Virus record (IMG/VR): IMGVR_UViG_3300029495_000074 | Direction: 5' to 3' (one strand) | DNA length: 6,070 nucleotides | From: a virus | Shown: positions 124-6,070 of the stretch, in pieces | Numbering within the stretch: the first letter of the stretch is position 1 | Layout: each line of letters begins with the position of its first letter | Notes under the pieces: model-generated | Database searches by the model: none | What the model saw: only the letters and a program-made list of their open reading frames with translations | Told to the model about the DNA's origin: nothing | Made by a program: the position numbers and the translations under genes

Positions 124-446
124 ACTTTTCGCATGATTTCACCTGTGTTTATAATCATTCCCGGTACATGGTCGTCATCATAGGTTAGTGTAATAAACCA
201 GACTTGTTCTTTTGGATAATCTCGTGCTTCCAATTCTATTCGCGTTGTCCAGTCCTCACGTTGCCTGATTCTGCACCCAATACATTGTCCGCATGGTATT
301 AGCATAATGTTTTTTTGGTACATCAAATCTTCATATTTGAGCTGTTTCCCTGACATTTCAGAAAAACGGGCGAGTGAATACACCCGCCCGCTTATATCTT
401 TGTTGTTCGGGTTGTACAGCCTTATTAATGGCTTGTAGCAACTCAT
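1..446 (-). CDS. VP4: Replication initiation protein VP4 (HUH rolling-circle Rep), N-terminal part. It continues into 5947..5374 across the circular junction. The full gene is 1020 nt (339 aa).
   Basis: Manual reverse-complement translation from ATG 446..444 has no stop: MSCYKPLIRLYNPNNKDISGRVYSLARFSEMSGKQLKYEDLMYQKNIMLIPCGQCIGCRIRQREDWTTRIELEARDYPKEQVWFITLTYDDDHVPG...LRKAYRGKLRYFV. The M-x-C-x-x-P start, CGQCIGCR and FITLTYD motifs are typical of Microviridae VP4. The ATG overlaps the VP2 TGA (ATGA) and has an AGGTGA SD-like element upstream. The frame (codon first bases at positions 2 mod 3) matches the 5374..5904 ORF when joined. It is missing from the ORF track because it runs off the window start. 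Confidence 0.9.
   Translation of the reverse strand, partial: MSCYKPLIRLYNPNNKDISGRVYSLARFSEMSGKQLKYEDLMYQKNIMLIPCGQCIGCRIRQREDWTTRIELEARDYPKEQVWFITLTYDDDHVPGMIINTGEIMRKVQYVWKPGEKRPESVQTLLYPDVQKFLKRLRKAYRGKLRYF
361..390 (-). terminator. Candidate intrinsic terminator or attenuator embedded in the 5' end of VP4, just downstream of the VP2 stop.
   Basis: The minus strand reads CGGGCGgGTG-TATT-CACtCGCCCG followed by TTTTTCT. That gives a 6-bp GC stem plus 3 more bp across one mismatch, a 4-nt loop and a T-tract. Because it lies inside the coding sequence (codons SGRVYSLARFS), its function is an inference. Confidence 0.4.
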
Positions 447-1297
447 TTTAAGTAATCACCTGGCTTTCTTTTTTCTCCGTATTTTCCGGTCTTGTCTTGT
501 GGCGCAATATAGTTTTTCTTTGTCGGTTGTTTTACTGTTGCCTTATCGATTGCCTTATCTGTGCCGCTTGCAACATCTGTTAAGGCTTTCTGAAGTCCGT
601 AAGGTGTCATGTGCGTTGTGCTAAGCATTTGCTGCCAGCTTTGTGCTGCGTTGTACCAGTCGCTTTGTGACCAGCTATAGCTTTCATATGCGTTTGGTAC
701 GAATCCTCCGCTTCTGCTTACTCCCAGTGCGCTGCTGCTTGCTAGTCCCATGCTTGCACCGCTGATTGTTCCGGCACTTCCGCCTGGTGTGCTTGCGCCA
801 CCGTTTGCAAAGGCTAAGATTGGATTAAGTCCTGCCTTGCGCATATCTTCCACTGCTCGTTGATATGCCGTGTTTGACATGTGCTCTTGCCACTCTCTGT
901 TTGCTAGTGCTTCCGCGCTGTTGTAGTTCATGGCTACGCTGTTTTCGATGTGATTATATACGCCTTGCATGATTGCTTGTAAGGTGTTATAGCCCATTTG
1001 TTTAAGCATACTTTGACTGTTGTATTTGCCTTGCATTGCTGCTTCCTGTCCTTGGTATGCGTATGCTTGTTTTAGCCACTCGTCTTCTTGTTTAATGTTT
1101 GTTCCGGCTTGGCTACCGCTTATTGAGTGCCCGCCGCCCTGGTTTATGCTACCGCCCTGGCTTTGGCTGTTACCTGTTTGTCCCCATCCGCCGAATGCTC
1201 CGGCTATGTTTTTAGCTGCTCCCGCGAATGTGCCGATTGTGTTTGCTACGTTTCCCGCTACGTTGAGCGCTGTTAAAAGTCTTGATAATCCTGTCAT
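443..1297 (-). CDS. VP2: Minor capsid / DNA pilot protein VP2 (284 aa).
   Basis: The position directly after VP1 fits gokushovirus synteny. It has a Gly/Ala-rich hydrophobic N-terminus, a G/Q/S low-complexity tract and a conserved-looking core ...HMSNTAYQRAVEDMRKAGLNPILAFANGG.... The stop TGA 443..445 overlaps the VP4 ATG. Confidence 0.8.
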   Translation of the reverse strand: MTGLSRLLTALNVAGNVANTIGTFAGAAKNIAGAFGGWGQTGNSQSQGGSINQGGGHSISGSQAGTNIKQEDEWLKQAYAYQGQEAAMQGKYNSQSMLKQMGYNTLQAIMQGVYNHIENSVAMNYNSAEALANREWQEHMSNTAYQRAVEDMRKAGLNPILAFANGGASTPGGSAGTISGASMGLASSSALGVSRSGGFVPNAYESYSWSQSDWYNAAQSWQQMLSTTHMTPYGLQKALTDVASGTDKAIDKATVKQPTKKNYIAPQDKTGKYGEKRKPGDYLK

Positions 1298-1335: not shown

Positions 1336-3033
1336 TTACAGTTTGTACAAGCCCGGTACGCTGTACAAAGGTATCCGTCTTGTGGTCTTGTTTGCTACGC
1401 GGATTGCGCCAAAAAATTGCGGCTCGTCCTGTACGATGAGCGTGCGTGCAATTTCTTCTTTTCCTTCTGTCATCCATTCTTGCGACAGTGTCGGTACAGT
1501 CGAGTAGTTGTCGGCGTAGTGCCAGAAGTCCAGCGGACCTGTCGCGTTGCTTCTCATTTTGCCGGATACGCGGTTAGGCTTCATTCGATAGTCTGCCCAA
1601 GCTTCTTGGTAACCAAATGTTTCTTCGTCTGTTGCTTCTCCGGTCAACATGATTTCCTTTTTCTTCACAGGCTGTTCGCCCAAGTTTGCAAACTGAGGCA
1701 CGTAGTAGTCTAACCTGTCCGTTCTGCTCCAAAAACGTTCCAGGCCTTGCTGGTAACTGTGATTGTGTCGCACACAACAGACACCGATTACGAACCCGTG
1801 TTCCTCAAAGGACTTTGTAAAACTGCTTTCGTTGATGGGTGTTACTGACATTGCGCCAGTTTCGCCGATCGGCGTGTCTGTGTCGCTTTTCTGTCCGCTG
1901 GTTTGTACGATCTGGTTCATGTTGACGCGGTATCTGCCACCGCCCAGGTACTCCGGTACTTGTACTGTTTTATCCGAGATTACCACATCCCATAGTGCCT
2001 GTACCTGCTCACGGTATCTGCTACCACCTCTTGCCAGCGCTTCGTAATATTGCTGTACTGCTACGGCTTTTCGCAAGTCGTTGATTGTTGCGGCGGAGAC
2101 TGATGCGAGGTCTGCGCCTAGGTATACTACGCTGTGTTCCGACCCCGTTCCGTCTCCAATGGCTAAGTATGCTGATCCTGTGCCTCCATCTTCTGCGATT
2201 GCATACAGTTTGTCTTTGATATTGGTCGGGTTTGTGTTTCCGTCATGAAAGCTGTTTACATATAGAGGTGCTTTTTCGTTAAATTTGTCACTTGTGTATC
2301 CGGTTATTCTTGCATTACCTTGCATCGGCAGCATTACTTCTGGCCCGCGCTGCGGATACGGTAAGCAGCTGGTAAAGTAGTCGTGGAATTTGCTGACCGG
2401 TAAACAATAGCCCCCTTTGTATGCGTTTTTTAGTCTATTTTCAATTGTTGCTTCTTTTTCGTTTATTCCGCTTTTTGTTCCTGTGTCGTAAACCACATCT
2501 TGGCTTGCCGTTTGGATTGTTGCTGCGTTTTCAACGTTTTCGTCTCTGAAAAATTCATTCCATATTTTTACGTATGCTCTGACTGGTAGTGCGTTGATAG
2601 CGAATGTGTTCTTTATTTTTGTCGGCACTCCCATGTAGTCAAGGATAGTTCCTTCCGCTGGTTTTGGAATTCCTCCTCCTGTTACGGTTATCACAATTTT
2701 TGGTACTTTGTAATTTTTTTCTGGCATCCAAGGTGTGTCTTCTACTTCTCCCATGAATTTTTTGAAGTCATCCCATAAAATGCGGTTGGGACAATAGAAA
2801 TAATAGAAGTCAATGAATGCATCATCCATCACCGGATACTTTGGCGTGGTCATTCTTATGATTGCGCTTGTGTCTACGCTGAACGTATCGCCTGGAAGCA
2901 CTTCGTCCACGTAGAACGGAATCAGTTTGCCGGCATCAAACGTTGTTAAAATCGTCTGGTCACGGTTGAATCTTGTTCGACTTGCTTTCATTTCTGGGAT
3001 TTGGTTGAAGTGCCGTTCATTGTTTCGATTCAC
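1336..3033 (-). CDS. VP1: Major capsid protein VP1 (F-like jelly-roll), 565 aa, GTG start.
   Basis: Size and N-terminus are typical of the Microviridae MCP: ...HFNQIPEMKASRTRFNRDQTILTTFDAGKLIPFYVDEVLPGDTF.... The start codon is GTG (plus-strand cac 3031..3033) with AAGGAGG 7 nt upstream. GTGA overlaps the VP3 stop. Confidence 0.95.
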   Translation of the reverse strand: MNRNNERHFNQIPEMKASRTRFNRDQTILTTFDAGKLIPFYVDEVLPGDTFSVDTSAIIRMTTPKYPVMDDAFIDFYYFYCPNRILWDDFKKFMGEVEDTPWMPEKNYKVPKIVITVTGGGIPKPAEGTILDYMGVPTKIKNTFAINALPVRAYVKIWNEFFRDENVENAATIQTASQDVVYDTGTKSGINEKEATIENRLKNAYKGGYCLPVSKFHDYFTSCLPYPQRGPEVMLPMQGNARITGYTSDKFNEKAPLYVNSFHDGNTNPTNIKDKLYAIAEDGGTGSAYLAIGDGTGSEHSVVYLGADLASVSAATINDLRKAVAVQQYYEALARGGSRYREQVQALWDVVISDKTVQVPEYLGGGRYRVNMNQIVQTSGQKSDTDTPIGETGAMSVTPINESSFTKSFEEHGFVIGVCCVRHNHSYQQGLERFWSRTDRLDYYVPQFANLGEQPVKKKEIMLTGEATDEETFGYQEAWADYRMKPNRVSGKMRSNATGPLDFWHYADNYSTVPTLSQEWMTEGKEEIARTLIVQDEPQFFGAIRVANKTTRRIPLYSVPGLYKL

Positions 3034-3428
3034 TTTTCTCCCTCCTTTGCTTCAGGTTCTGCTTTTGTTTTTTCCGCTTCCATTTTTTTTAGCTCTTCAA
3101 GCTTCATTGCGTTTGCTTGTGCGGTTGCAATCATGCGGTGGTACTCGTGGATGTTTTGCGGAAATTCGGTAATGTCTGTGTATGTACCGTTTAATGCTCC
3201 TTCTGATAAACTTTTAAGAAACTGTGGGTCAAAACTTGCTTTTCGGACAATGCTTTTGATATCGCATTCGTCTGCATAGCTTTCGATTTCTTGTTGGATG
3301 TCGATTGGTGCAGTTTCTTGGAGTACTTCTTGTCCTTTTTCGTCTTTCGTCCAGACGTATTGCTTTCGGAATTTTTCTCCGCTTTCAGAAAAGAAGGGCT
3401 CGCGCCCTTCTTCGTATCGTTTATTCAT
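3030..3428 (-). CDS. VP3: Internal scaffolding protein VP3 (132 aa).
   Basis: It lies immediately upstream of VP1, as in gokushoviruses. It is acidic and helical with a Lys/Glu-rich C-terminus. The start was chosen at ATG 3428 because GGGAGGG lies 8 nt upstream and the ATG overlaps the VP5 stop (ATGAATAA). The longer track ORF to 3548 lacks a usable SD. Confidence 0.7.
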   Translation of the reverse strand: MNKRYEEGREPFFSESGEKFRKQYVWTKDEKGQEVLQETAPIDIQQEIESYADECDIKSIVRKASFDPQFLKSLSEGALNGTYTDITEFPQNIHEYHRMIATAQANAMKLEELKKMEAEKTKAEPEAKEGEK

Positions 3429-3660
3429 TCGGCTTGCCCTCCCATGTTTTTTCCTTTTCGTTTGTAAATTCGCCGGTTTCGTCTTCAAAAACCGCCAGCT
3501 TAAAGCCGGTATAGTCGCCTGGCGCCTGTCCAACAAACGTTTTTTCATCCTTTGCCATAACGTTGCACATTCGTGCGAATGTTGCGTTGTTCTTGCTCTC
3601 TCCTACCCATGCATAGCATTTTGCCACGCTGTCCCACAAGCCGAAATATTCATGCTTCAT
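3421..3660 (-). CDS. VP5: VP5-like nonstructural protein (79 aa).
   Basis: MKHEYFGLWDSVAKCYAWV...ATFARMCN...PGDYTGFKLAVFEDETGEF matches my recollection of the gokushovirus VP5 pattern (x-D-S-K-A-x-x-Y near the N-terminus, D-F/Y-T-L-F-E-L-G-x-F-D-x-x-T-G later). The AAAGGAGAG SD lies upstream of ATG 3660. Its position upstream of VP3 is syntenic. Confidence 0.7.
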   Translation of the reverse strand: MKHEYFGLWDSVAKCYAWVGESKNNATFARMCNVMAKDEKTFVGQAPGDYTGFKLAVFEDETGEFTNEKEKTWEGKPNE

Positions 3661-3781: not shown

Positions 3782-3785
3782 TTTT

Positions 3786-4013
3786 TTACGATGTTGTGCC
3801 ATCATTATACTCCCTTCTCATTAATTCCGTTTCGATTGCGTTTGCTAAGGCTTTCATTGCCCAGATTTCATCGATTAACTTATGAGCGTCCTCGATGTTT
3901 GATACTCTTTTGAGCATTTTATACTCGCCTTCTATTTCTTTGTATTTTCGCAAGAGTAGTTCTTGCAATGCTTCTTCGGGCTGGTCTCGTATATTCCATG
4001 TTTTGTACGTCAT
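3786..4013 (-). CDS. Hypothetical protein (75 aa), predicted all-helical and acidic.
   Basis: Start taken at ATG 4013 (MTYKTWNIRDQPEE...) because AAGGAG lies 7 nt upstream and the upstream ORF stops 4 nt before it. The track ORF begins further upstream at 4067 without an SD. I recognise no family. Confidence 0.6.
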   Translation of the reverse strand: MTYKTWNIRDQPEEALQELLLRKYKEIEGEYKMLKRVSNIEDAHKLIDEIWAMKALANAIETELMRREYNDGTTS

Positions 4014-4017
4014 GATT

Positions 4018-4134
4018 TTACTCCTTTTCGTTGATGCTATCGTGCAGTGCGTGATAGATTTCGTCAAGCTTTTCGAGGATTTGCATCATAATGCGGATTG
4101 CCTGTTTGACGTCTTTGATACTGATTAGTGCCAT
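4018..4134 (-). CDS. Hypothetical small protein (38 aa). Not in the supplied ORF track.
   Basis: Manual translation gives MALISIKDVKQAIRIMMQILEKLDEIYHALHDSINEKE*. The AAGGGGG SD lies 6 nt upstream of ATG 4134. It starts 1 nt after the peptidase stop, and its own stop lies 4 nt before the next start, so it fills the gap exactly. Confidence 0.5.
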   Translation of the reverse strand: MALISIKDVKQAIRIMMQILEKLDEIYHALHDSINEKE

Positions 4135-4135
4135 T

Positions 4136-4528
4136 TTATACCCCCTTTCTGTACTTTGCATTGCGTACATCAAAATGTATCCAGTTATCGTATACGATAA
4201 TGCCGCAATTGTTTGGTACGATTTTATTTAGCTCCTTTGCTACGTCTTTTGGTGTCATGCCGTTTACTCGGATATCTGCTGCGCATCCTCTCATGTGGTA
4301 GCTGTACTTTGCACCGCCAACTTTTTTGTTGTGTTCCGGTGTCCGGTATCCGCTGGTGATGATTATCGGTTTGTTGATTGTCTGCCGCAGCATCTCTAGC
4401 AGTGTTACTAGATATTCGTCGATAAACACGATCGGGCTCCCGTCTTTGCACGCAAATTCTTTTACTTTAAAGTGGTTTGTGATTTTTACGTTTCCGTCTG
4501 TGTCTGCGAGATAGCTCTTGATGTTCAT
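4136..4528 (-). CDS. Zinc peptidoglycan peptidase, Peptidase_M15 (M15_3/M15A, LAS-fold) family. Candidate endolysin (130 aa).
   Basis: The family motifs appear in the expected order: F-K-V-K-E-F-A-C-K-D-G, then SGYRTPEHNKKVGGAKYSYHMRGCAADI (the S-x-H-x-x-G-x-A-x-D zinc-ligand motif), then WIHFDV (H-x-D). No N-terminal signal peptide or TM segment is visible. Confidence 0.85.
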   Translation of the reverse strand: MNIKSYLADTDGNVKITNHFKVKEFACKDGSPIVFIDEYLVTLLEMLRQTINKPIIITSGYRTPEHNKKVGGAKYSYHMRGCAADIRVNGMTPKDVAKELNKIVPNNCGIIVYDNWIHFDVRNAKYRKGV

Positions 4529-4534
4529 ATCCTA

Positions 4535-4759
4535 TCATCCTTTCGTTATCTTGTCAATTTCTGATGCGGGATACGTGGCGTAATCTGTGTATGTTATGGT
4601 GTTTAAGATTTGGCTGTCTCGATCGTTGCGCCCGATCAGGTACTCGTCTGTACCGTCTAAGTAATCTATAACGTATTTGTTGCCATATTTTGTCGTTCTT
4701 TTGCTTTCGCCTTTTTTTATCATGTCAATTAGGACTTTTTTTAGATCTTTTTTTCTCAT
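4535..4759 (-). CDS. Hypothetical protein (74 aa), first gene after the promoter.
   Basis: The ORF begins about 40 nt downstream of the predicted transcription start, after a purine-rich leader (GAAAGAAGTGAAAC). It has a basic N-terminus (MRKKDLKKVLIDMIKKGESKR) and a likely beta-rich remainder. Its stop lies 6 nt before the peptidase ATG. I recognise no family. Confidence 0.55.
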   Translation of the reverse strand: MRKKDLKKVLIDMIKKGESKRTTKYGNKYVIDYLDGTDEYLIGRNDRDSQILNTITYTDYATYPASEIDKITKG

Positions 4760-4807
4760 TTTGTTTCACTTCTTTCTTTTTTTTGAGGTTTCTCTCTCTC
4801 TTTTTGT

Positions 4808-4836
4808 ATTATACCACTTTATGCTTTTTTTTGCAA
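4808..4836 (-). promoter_or_regulatory. Near-consensus sigma70/sigmaA promoter with an extended -10, driving the whole minus-strand operon.
   Basis: The minus strand reads TTGCAA (4836..4831), a 17-nt spacer ending in TGG, then TATAAT (4813..4808), i.e. TGnTATAAT. It lies at the downstream edge of the noncoding region, directly upstream of the first ORF. Confidence 0.75.
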
Positions 4837-5002
4837 GTGAATGTTTTTCATCTTAGCGTTAATCGTTTTTTAGTCTTGACTTTCATAGTTTGTTCATTTT
4901 TGTTGCTGGTCTTGCTCCTTTGTTTTGAATGCGCTTTAGCGCTCTTCCGTGCGTAGCGTATGCGGAGCTCGGATAATCCATTCATTGTAAGCGCTGTGCG
5001 CG

Positions 5003-5169
5003 TTTTCAACACTTTCAACAGTTTCAACAGGTTTTCAACATAAAGTTGCACAAAGGTTTTCGTCATTTTGACGGACTTTCAACAATTCAACAAGTTTTCA
5101 ATAAAACTTTCAACAGTGTTTTTTGCTTTTTATTTACGCTTTAGCGTTAAATTTTAGTACTTTTCAACT
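5003..5169. repeat. Array of nine direct yTTTCAACA repeats (TGTTGAAAr on the coding strand): two clusters of four plus one outlier.
   Basis: The 9-mers start at 5003 TTTTCAACA, 5012 CTTTCAACA, 5021 GTTTCAACA and 5032 TTTTCAACA. After a 35-bp spacer holding a CGTCA-TTT-TGACG mini-hairpin (5061..5073), they continue at 5076 CTTTCAACA, 5084 AATTCAACA, 5095 TTTTCAATA and 5107 CTTTCAACA, with an outlier at 5161 TTTTCAACT. Spacing within clusters is 8 to 12 bp. Confidence 0.85.
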
Positions 5170-5253
5170 TTTCCACTACCTCTACTACTACTCCTACAAC
5201 AAGTTATATATTATACGGCGCTTGTGAGCTTGCGAACAATAGCGCCTAAGAGC

Positions 5254-5296
5254 CGCGCGTGCGCGCGTGCGCGCTTCGCGCGCGTGCGCACGTGCG
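5254..5296. other. GC-rich alternating pyrimidine-purine (CG/TG) inverted repeat: a 20-bp hairpin and Z-DNA-prone tract.
   Basis: 5254..5274 (21 nt) and 5277..5296 (20 nt) each alternate Py-Pu perfectly. On the plus strand 5254..5273 pairs with 5296..5277 as 17 Watson-Crick plus 3 G-T pairs with a CTT loop. On the minus strand the three wobbles become A-C mismatches. Confidence 0.8.
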
Positions 5297-5318
5297 ATAA
5301 GAGATAGCTATTTGATAG

Positions 5319-5358
5319 ACCTAGCCCAGTATCTTACTTGATAGGTACTGGGCTAGGT
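5319..5358. other. Perfect 13-bp inverted repeat (stem-loop) 16 nt downstream of the Rep stop. Candidate origin or terminator structure.
   Basis: ACCTAGCCCAGTA (5319..5331) pairs with TACTGGGCTAGGT (5346..5358). The 14-nt loop is TCTTACTTGATAGG, which can tighten to an 8-nt loop TACTTGAT through three further pairs (5332-5345 G-T wobble, 5333-5344, 5334-5343). Confidence 0.8.
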
Positions 5359-5373
5359 GACACTATGACACTG

Positions 5374-6070
5374 TTAAAGTGTCCCTCTCTTCTTCGTTTG
5401 CTTCTTGATTACTCTCTCCCTCGTTTTACACTGTTCTGCAAAGTCTGTGTTCTCATACTTTAGCCGGTTTTCTGCTATCGCTGCTTCTTGTCTGTTCTGT
5501 TTAATTCTCCACAATCTTTGTGGGTTTTCAGCTTCCATTTTCTTTTCATAGTATCGTGGTATCTGCGCGTGCTTTCCGTTTGTACACTGTATATAGCCTT
5601 GTCTCCAGATTTCTGCTTTGTGTTTTTCGTAATAGTTGTCTCCTAAACCCGGCTTTAGGCTCATACATGCAAATGGTTTTGCTTGCCCTAGCTCGTAGTA
5701 TGCGTTTGCTTTTTGACCGTCTATCTCATACATTTTTTTTGTGACGTATCCAGCAACATATCTATATGTTTCCGGCACTGCTTGTGCTATCTGTATTTGA
5801 CCCATGCCCCATAGGTCTGCTAGCCATTTACTTGTAAAGTATCCGTTGTGTTGTATCTTGTATAGGTGTTCTAGGTCTGTTGGTTGCCATCCATACAAGA
5901 TCATGTGGTAATGTGGTCTTGCTGTCTGTTCTCCGTATTCTCCCGCTACAAAATAGCGTAATTTGCCCCTGTAAGCCTTTCTGAGCCGTTTTAAAAATTT
6001 TTGAACGTCAGGATACAGTAACGTTTGGACGCTTTCAGGGCGCTTCTCTCCCGGCTTCCAGACGTATTGC
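5374..6070 (-). CDS. VP4: Replication initiation protein VP4, C-terminal part. 5948..6070 duplicates codons already listed in 1..123.
   Basis: The track ORF 5374..5904 stays open upstream to the window end: ...RYFVAGEYGEQTARPHYHMILYGW... It carries the HUH motif (HYH) and the catalytic tyrosine region YRYVAGYVTKKMY. The stop TAA is at 5374..5376. Confidence 0.9.
   Translation of the reverse strand, partial: QYVWKPGEKRPESVQTLLYPDVQKFLKRLRKAYRGKLRYFVAGEYGEQTARPHYHMILYGWQPTDLEHLYKIQHNGYFTSKWLADLWGMGQIQIAQAVPETYRYVAGYVTKKMYEIDGQKANAYYELGQAKPFACMSLKPGLGDNYYEKHKAEIWRQGYIQCTNGKHAQIPRYYEKKMEAENPQRLWRIKQNRQEAAIAENRLKYENTDFAEQCKTRERVIKKQTKKRGTL
5948..6070. repeat. Terminal direct repeat, copy 2 (redundant with 1..123).
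   Basis: Same 123-nt string as 1..123, so position 5948 is equivalent to position 1. Confidence 0.95.

Follow-up and report, generated by a model that had tools for sequence, protein, structure and literature searches.

A candidate host-type DnaA-box and unwinding module in the main noncoding region of a gut gokushovirus

Here we describe a cassette, about 215 bp long, that lies in the main noncoding region of a gut gokushovirus (IMG/VR record IMGVR_UViG_3300029495_000074), analysed as one stretch of 6,070 nucleotides that we refer to as the window. The first and last 123 nucleotides of the window are identical (1–123 = 5948–6070), and it is thus a circular genome of 5,947 nucleotides plus an assembly overlap; naive wrap-around of the circular record duplicates 41 residues of VP4. 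Its closest relatives in GenBank are gokushoviruses from the human and pig gut, at about 83% identity. Every gene lies on the minus strand, in the order VP1, VP2, VP4/Rep, main noncoding region, small open reading frames (ORFs), M15 peptidase, VP5-like protein and VP3 (Table 1), and from what holds for the family we assume that the gene-sense strand is the one packaged. Between the VP4 stop codon and the promoter of the downstream operon sits an array of short direct repeats, which the original prediction had read primarily as iterons bound by the viral Rep protein. The evidence set out below strongly supports a different assignment, to sites that recruit or titrate host DnaA; by extension, the array would form the upstream portion of an entire oriC-type unwinding module like that in the origins of the likely hosts.

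The array consists of ten 9-mers on one strand (5003–5177), all head to tail and reading TGTTGAAAR in gene sense. The first four copies start at 5003, 5012, 5021 and 5032 (spacings 9, 9 and 11), the second four at 5076, 5084/5 (AATTCAACA, a weaker copy), 5095 (TTTTCAATA) and 5107 (spacings 8–9, 10–11 and 12), and the ninth, TTTTCAACT, follows at 5161, 45 bp past the second cluster. The layout first described, with two clusters of four around a 35-bp spacer and a further copy downstream, can be read directly from the sequence. The nine copies counted at that time were all found, but a tenth (TTTTCCACT, 5169–5177), which overlaps the ninth by one base, had been overlooked; similarly, of the proposed helical-turn spacing the range of 8–12 bp stands, but several 9-mers abut directly and the phasing is not strictly helical. 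The iteron-like array is nonetheless real, with box counts far above those of all dinucleotide shuffles. Allowing at most one mismatch, YTTTCAACA matches 11 times in the window, 8 of them on the plus strand at 5003–5169, a total reached in none of 200 shuffles. Nine boxes within one mismatch of TTTTCAACA or TTTTCCACA stand on one strand within 180 nucleotides, against a mean of 1.2 and a maximum of 3 for the same count in 2,000 shuffles. Most copies carry one mismatch to TTWTNCACA, which is the E. coli consensus for the DnaA box, the host here being a presumed one; as predicted, TTTTCAACA departs from it at position 6. The predicted distance of 170–330 bp between the array and the operon promoter also holds, given the promoter found at 4836–4808 on the minus strand.

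The repeats are noncoding. The sole ORF across them (4848..5066, minus strand, 72 residues, basic) overlaps boxes 1–4, matches no known family, holds the operon promoter and is disrupted in relatives with an inverted cassette (type B, below), and it is probably not a gene. A coding tandem repeat was accordingly rejected as an explanation, as no conserved ORF spans the copies. A scan of 4700–5500 against Rfam at permissive thresholds returned only one chance-level microRNA match, and hence no known RNA family.

Table 1 Features of the window and of the cassette, with positions in the whole stretch
Feature	Position	Strand	Remarks
VP1	3033..1336	-	
VP2 (pilot protein)	1297..443	-	
VP4/Rep, 339 residues	446..1 + 5947..5374	-	
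Hairpin beside the VP4 stop codon, outside the array; candidate Rep nick site/rolling-circle origin	5319..5358	-	z = -5.47, single-stranded DNA fold
Whole cassette, about 215 bp, apparently one exchangeable unit	5003..5219	+	
Candidate DnaA-box cluster I, four head to tail: TTTTCAACA, CTTTCAACA, GTTTCAACA, TTTTCAACA	5003..5040	+	near-invariant in 74 aligned cassettes
35-bp spacer with conserved GTTGCACAA and palindrome CGTCATTTTGACG (5062–5074)	5041..5075	.	
Candidate DnaA-box cluster II: CTTTCAACA, (A)ATTCAACA, TTTTCAATA, CTTTCAACA	5076..5115	+	74-cassette alignment
Variable linker with small palindrome ACGCTTTAGCGT (5136–5147)	5116..5160	.	low conservation
Candidate proximal tandem box pair: TTTTCAACT (5161–5169), TTTTCCACT (5169–5177)	5161..5177	+	
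Short C-rich spacer ACCT, from boxes to trios	5178..5181	+	hosts: CCCC, TACC or CCA
Candidate DnaA-trios, plus strand CTA CTA CTA CTC CTA (CAA CAA)	5182..5202	-	
Candidate DNA unwinding element, AT-rich (GTTATATATTATAC)	5203..5216	.	
Sigma-70-like promoter of the downstream operon, TTGCAA-17-TGgTATAAT (extended TG)	4836-4808	-	strong
M15 peptidase	4528..4136	-	
VP5-like protein	3660..3421	-	
VP3	3548..3030	-	

At its downstream end the array runs into a core of the order TTTTCAACT TTTCCACT ACCT CTA CTA CTA CTC CTA CAA CAA G TTATATATTATAC, which can be compared with the published rule for bacterial origins. A basal unwinding system comprises a DnaA box or, most commonly, a tandem pair of boxes, a spacer of at most 16 nucleotides (mode about 13) and at least three DnaA-trios, of which 3'-GAT-5' is the commonest (PMC8287927). 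The trio motif is given as 3'-G/AAT-5' (PMC10797057), the experimentally supported trio of C. difficile oriC2 is CACCTACTACTATTACTACTATGA (PMC7561715), and next to the unwinding site lies an AT-rich element of low stability (PMC8287927; PMC10797057; PMC6669920). In the window, the upstream box of the pair lies 12 nucleotides from the first trio (5182), and five consecutive trios, four of them 3'-GAT-5', occupy 5182–5196 in the same orientation as in host origins; they match both the general motif and the C. difficile trio. On the minus strand they read 3'-GAT GAT GAT GAG GAT-5', and this is the strand that DnaA would bind as single-stranded DNA. A box followed by (CTA)3 within 16 nucleotides arose in none of 2,000 shuffles. 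Directly past the trios, AAGTTATATATTATAC (5201–5216) is the least stable 16-mer duplex of the 6,054 in the window, and all relatives and hosts likewise have AT-rich DNA after the trios. Applied in a strict version, the rule holds for 77 of the 89 viral loci.

The box pair, trios and AT-rich stretch are also the best-conserved part of the cassette, both among the GenBank matches and in an alignment of 74 cassettes, in which boxes and core are near-invariant and the linkers vary. The weakest GenBank matches keep only 5161–5215, and in KT264799, the smallest genome, the box pair, the trios and the AT-rich stretch are all that remains. Because the phage genome encodes neither dnaA nor dnaN, the cassette is not a chromosomal oriC; it would work like, or copy, an origin module.

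The same repeats are found in bacterial origins. One genome per species was scanned for three spaced copies of TTCAACA, which matched at least 120 loci; among the matches listed, arrays of TTTTCAACA mixed with the canonical TTTTCCACA occur in Oscillospiraceae, Ruminococcus, Ruminococcaceae and Clostridiales contigs. At least four of the arrays fill the intergenic stretch between dnaA and dnaN (L108, L125, L130 and L157, all from Oscillospiraceae, Ruminococcus or Clostridiales), which in Clostridia is the position of the oriC2-type origin (PMC7561715). In all four contigs the flanking DnaA and DnaN genes were verified by Pfam and tblastn, with rnpA and yidD upstream, and TTTTCAACA is the dominant repeat of these Oscillospirales regions. 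In L157, all 22 copies of TTTCAACA in the contig lie inside the 860-nucleotide dnaA–dnaN region, which holds no canonical box, so the DnaA of this bacterium must, we infer, use TTTTCAACA. The regions of L108 and L125 mix the motif with TTTTCCACA, and exact TTTTCCACA boxes replace some of the copies in viral relatives as well. The L108 origin ends in TTTTCAACA G TTTCAACA CCCC CTA x5 followed by AT-rich DNA, and the L125, L130 and L157 origins end on the same plan. Virus and hosts share tandem boxes, a C-rich spacer of 3–5 nucleotides, (CTA)n and an AT-rich stretch, in that order. Recruitment or titration of host DnaA, which the original prediction had raised as its alternative, is strongly supported by this match and by the trio layout.

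The DnaA proteins of these four contigs carry the recognition helix DHSTIVYA, as against DHTTV(I/L)HA in the DnaA structures solved for E. coli, B. subtilis and Aquifex. The changes correspond to T435S and H439Y in E. coli numbering, at two positions that we take to be in contact with DnaA-box bases, and the helix is consistent with a shifted box specificity. TTTTCAACA and DHSTIVYA thus form a probable lineage-specific pair of box and recognition helix in abundant gut Clostridia, and the Oscillospirales, which belong to these Clostridia, are the likely hosts of the virus.

Among viruses, the cassette is widespread and conserved. A sensitive DNA search with 4900–5230 recovered the segment in 45 GenBank gokushovirus records, several of which match the window nowhere else, and of 80 IMG/VR loci with a Rep 88–96% identical to that of the window, all complete genomes carry the array beside VP4. 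One locus, L005, lacks the repeats although its Rep shares 94% identity with that of the window, and looked at first like a refuting relative. It was rejected as such, being a chimeric contig and not a gokushovirus alone: portal, head-morphogenesis and terminase-like genes of a tailed phage (6280–8781) are joined directly past its VP4 hairpin. Two other loci, L028 (10.9 kb) and L038 (8.5 kb of a 10.7-kb contig), have additional clusters of the motif, in L038 a second copy of the cassette, and both look like concatemers or chimeras. The same boxes are present in viruses whose Rep is only 37–56% and whose VP1 is only 41–56% identical to the window's; at this distance coding DNA can no longer be aligned, and the cassette DNA still aligns. 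Since the same 9-mer is kept across such different Rep proteins, the repeats do not co-vary with Rep.

The cassette was found in three arrangements. In arrangement A, that of the window and of the large majority, it lies downstream of VP4 and antisense to the genes; in B it is downstream of VP4 in sense orientation; and in C it lies between VP2 and VP4, again in sense. In six of the 80 IMG/VR loci (L025, L040, L043, L063, L065 and L072), exactly the segment 5002/3–5213/19 is inverted relative to both flanks. The inverted cassettes are of a distinct sequence type, with 76–79% identity to the window cassette as against 82–96% for cassettes of the same orientation, whereas type B VP4 genes are interspersed among type A VP4 genes, so that the VP4 phylogeny does not track orientation. 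L025 and L014, for instance, share 96.8% nucleotide identity in VP4 and carry cassettes of opposite orientation and different sequence types. Because the inverted cassettes are a distinct type and their VP4 genes mix with type A, the cassette appears to be swapped between lineages by recombination, as a module, and not flipped in place. GC-rich quasi-palindromes (GTGCGCG / CGCGCAC) bracket it in every arrangement and could be the substrate of this recombination.

A hairpin beside VP4, outside the array, makes a better candidate for the origin used by Rep, judging from its conserved loop, its constant presence on the gene-sense strand and its place next to the gene. It lies directly past the VP4 stop codon in arrangements A and B and directly before the start codon in C. 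The stems are unrelated between viruses (ACCTAGCCCAGTA, TGGCGCAAG, CAGTGGGCCTAATCCT and ACCGGCACAAG) and the loop is conserved as (T)ATCAAG(T/A)A or ATAGACAAG(T/G)AAG. The stems covary across viruses, and CTATCAAAT adjoins the hairpin at 5310–5318. The reverse complement of the hairpin holds ACTTGATA, which we take to be the phiX174 origin core surrounding the cleavage site of gene A; at the VP4 hairpin it would lie on the antisense strand. The cassette itself shows no significant single-strand structure on either strand (z = -0.57 and -1.40), making a hairpin-based complementary-strand origin inside it unlikely. Being free in orientation and position, exchanged, and without a significant single-strand fold, the cassette would most simply act on duplex DNA.

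On balance we consider it probable that the repeats are host-type DnaA boxes that, together with the trios and AT-rich stretch (5161–5216), copy the basal unwinding system of Oscillospirales dnaA–dnaN regions. The best reading of its function is that the cassette would recruit host DnaA to the double-stranded replicative form and melt the duplex there. Host DnaA-ATP would fill the ten head-to-tail boxes on the replicative form, a DnaA oligomer would extend from the proximal box pair onto the 3'-GAT-5' trios, and the adjacent AT-rich element (5203–5216) would then melt. The architecture, the match to host origins, the conservation, the independence from Rep and the modular behaviour are direct observations; binding of DnaA, melting and every downstream consequence are inferred from them. 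The virus would then possess, apart from the Rep nick site, a site where unwinding or initiation depends on DnaA. Once open, the site could load host helicase for Rep-independent, theta-type copying or for (episomal) maintenance of the replicative form, or could alternatively serve priming. In the common arrangement, opening could also help to make the nearby Rep hairpin accessible; this hairpin is found on the unwinding side in arrangements A and C, but not in B. More tentatively, the gut gokushovirus clade may have acquired a working host-origin unwinding module that it trades by recombination, leaving it with a replicative form that host DnaA can open, much like a minichromosome.

Several observations weigh against these proposals. 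In type B genomes the unwinding end points away from the Rep hairpin, so help for Rep cannot be its general role. The departure of TTTTCAACA from TTWTNCACA falls at a normally strict position, and it is solely by its location and abundance that TTTTCAACA is taken as the DnaA box of these hosts. At about 14–16 bp, the AT-rich element is short compared with chromosomal elements, and GC-rich DNA follows it. The host assignment has the motif match as its only basis; a search for prophages found neither VP1 nor VP4 encoded in any of the at least 120 matched bacterial loci, so these provide no integrated copy and no direct link to a host. Finally, the cultured gokushoviruses phiMH2K, Chp2 and SpV4 have neither a cluster of DnaA boxes nor a run of trios, and the module is therefore not needed for basic microvirus replication and not family-wide. 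For the same reason it is best seen as an accessory acquisition of the gut clade, whose genomes measure 5.2–6.1 kb as against 4.4–4.6 kb in the cultured viruses.

The main rival, which we regard as rather unlikely as a full account, is a DnaA sink or sensor. The boxes would bind DnaA without initiation, and the multicopy replicative form would soak up DnaA and so block or retune host initiation and DnaA-controlled genes; in a variant, the module would couple phage gene expression to the level of DnaA-ATP in the host. The E. coli locus datA titrates DnaA, and clusters of DnaA boxes on plasmids disturb initiation in B. subtilis. Ten boxes per genome on a multicopy replicative form would suit such a role, as would the location of the array upstream of the operon promoter, and in T5-like phages a region believed not to act as a replication origin contains eight DnaA boxes in an organised layout, TTATCAACA variants among them (bioRxiv 10.1101/866236). 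For titration, however, trios and an unstable AT-rich element would be superfluous, and yet they are what is best conserved; moreover, arrangements A, B and C differ in where the cassette lies relative to promoters. Because the trio and AT-rich core is the most constrained part and the sole part kept in KT264799, real unwinding or initiation is favoured over pure titration, and a sink may operate alongside it. Another host factor that shares the origin region, such as a Spo0A-like protein or a response regulator bound to direct repeats, would tie phage development to sporulation or growth, and seems improbable. The 0A box, TGTCGAA, is one base from TGTTGAA, phi29 uses Spo0A sites, and the repeats are direct with a spacing of 8–12 bp; on the other hand, the CG core of the 0A box is absent, the tandem pair stands at the canonical distance from the trios, canonical TTTTCCACA boxes stand in for some copies in relatives, and the L157 origin region holds 22 copies of the motif and no canonical DnaA box, so that DnaA would have to use the motif there.

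That the viral Rep binds the 9-mers as iterons we hold to be very improbable. The main noncoding region, which adjoins the rep gene, does hold clustered direct repeats, and in some rolling-circle plasmids, such as pMV158, direct repeats are the locus that Rep binds. The co-variation of repeats and Rep proposed earlier as a check was sought and none was found, and the repeats match a host motif instead. The cassette is exchanged independently of VP4 and keeps no fixed position or orientation relative to the nick site, occurring in either orientation and on either side of VP4; among the matches listed, the identical motif and layout recur in bacterial origins without microvirus genes; and it is the separate sense-strand hairpin with its conserved loop that tracks VP4. 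The precise inversion of the segment in some relatives, bracketed as it is by GC-rich quasi-palindromes and a short inverted repeat, might instead point to an inverton, a phase-variable switch that flips a promoter or regulatory segment, and to this we give the least credence of all. Orientation goes with a distinct sequence type, which is unexpected from in-place flipping, and a fast inversion switch was rejected on that ground; only short GC-rich quasi-palindromes flank the segment, the window genome has no recombinase gene, no promoter is conserved inside the cassette, and a third arrangement places it between VP2 and VP4. An array of transcription-factor sites, also suggested at the outset, sits badly with a cassette whose position and orientation vary.

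The closest kin of the proposed unwinding module are the basal unwinding systems of bacteria, namely B. subtilis incC (boxes 6/7 and trios), C. difficile oriC2 and the L108, L125, L130 and L157 origins. Like them, the cassette has an upstream box cluster, a tandem proximal pair, a C-rich spacer, 3'-GAT-5' trios and least stable AT-rich DNA, in the same relative orientation, and it shares its box variant with Oscillospirales origins. Unlike chromosomal origins, it sits in a 5.9-kb single-stranded DNA phage and not by dnaA, its boxes all point one way, its AT-rich element is short, it occurs in either orientation to the genes and its function in the virus is read from sequence alone. Loci that titrate DnaA (E. 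coli datA and the B. subtilis clusters) resemble it as off-origin clusters able to hold many DnaA molecules, but are without trios and an unwinding element. Isolated DnaA boxes occur in plasmid and phage origins, and in P1 oriR, pSC101, F and R6K one to a few of them assist a plasmid-encoded Rep that acts on its own iterons. These are likewise mobile replicons that recruit host DnaA beside an AT-rich region; in the virus, however, the repeats themselves would be the DnaA boxes, accompanied by trios, and Rep, a rolling-circle nuclease, has a candidate site of its own elsewhere. Iteron plasmids, pMV158-type plasmids and viruses of the CRESS-DNA group share the clustered direct repeats near the rep gene, but iterons co-vary with their Rep, whereas the repeats described here do not and correspond to a motif of host chromosomes. 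The injection-stop region of T5-like phages is similar in being noncoding, with about eight organised DnaA boxes and an A at position 6 (TTATCAACA), and was called reminiscent of oriC by its authors (bioRxiv 10.1101/866236). It differs in belonging to a large double-stranded DNA phage, with boxes paired in inverted repeats, no trios or unwinding element described, and a proposed role in membrane tethering during injection, not in replication (bioRxiv 10.1101/866236). In a literature search we found no paper linking Microviridae or gokushoviruses with DnaA boxes or trios, and none on phage DnaA boxes described as oriC-like, and a search of the PLSDB plasmids with the cassette gave no match. The kind of element is well known in bacteria; what appears new here is a complete unwinding module of chromosomal type that single-stranded DNA phages would carry and exchange.

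Some further features of the cassette and its surroundings deserve mention. The 35-bp spacer is conserved in its own right, and its palindrome CGTCATTTTGACG is kept as GTCATAATGAC or CGTCAAAATGACG in types B and C, even at 37% identity in Rep, which suggests a second, dimeric binding factor; in the variable linker, relatives carry a different palindrome at the corresponding position. At the 5' edge of several sense-oriented cassettes an inverted canonical box opposes the first box (TGTGGAAAAC-ttga-GTTTTCAACA; L204 at about 3785–3815, L205 at about 1310–1335, L208 at about 2903–2930 and L209 at about 5360–5388), and on single-stranded DNA this arrangement could form a hairpin containing a double-stranded DnaA box. 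On the VP4 side of the window cassette, a GC-rich quasi-palindrome at 5254–5296 has alternating CG/CA and a central GCGAAGC, with a folding energy of -20.9 kcal/mol that is not better than that of shuffles; the GC-rich blocks that flank the cassette may be a substrate for inversion or exchange, or a single-strand signal. Between cassette and promoter, a block at 4908–5002 (CGCGCACAGCGCTTACAATGAATGG...GCGCTAAAGCGC in gene sense) is conserved in fixed orientation in types A and B. Two small minus-strand ORFs, 4535–4759 (74 residues) and 3786–4067 (93 residues), gave no match in Pfam or PHROG. Together with the M15 peptidase and the cassette, they make up the extra length of the clade over the 4.4–4.6-kb gokushoviruses.

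In the textbook account, microviruses replicate with their own rolling-circle nuclease and host elongation factors, and DnaA has no role. If the proposed reading is true, the life cycle of gut gokushoviruses would include a DnaA-dependent step, be it initiation, persistence or host takeover, and the module that serves it is present in more than 100 genomes. A tiny, lytic-type single-stranded DNA phage would thereby gain Rep-independent episomal persistence coupled to the cell cycle of its host, which would give a concrete mechanism for the persistence of abundant gut phages without an integrase. The box variant and trio layout would in addition serve as a sequence-only predictor of hosts, here pointing to the Oscillospirales, whose phages are hard to culture, and TTTTCAACA, in company with the DHSTIVYA helix, would be flagged as what is probably a lineage-specific DnaA box of major gut Clostridia.

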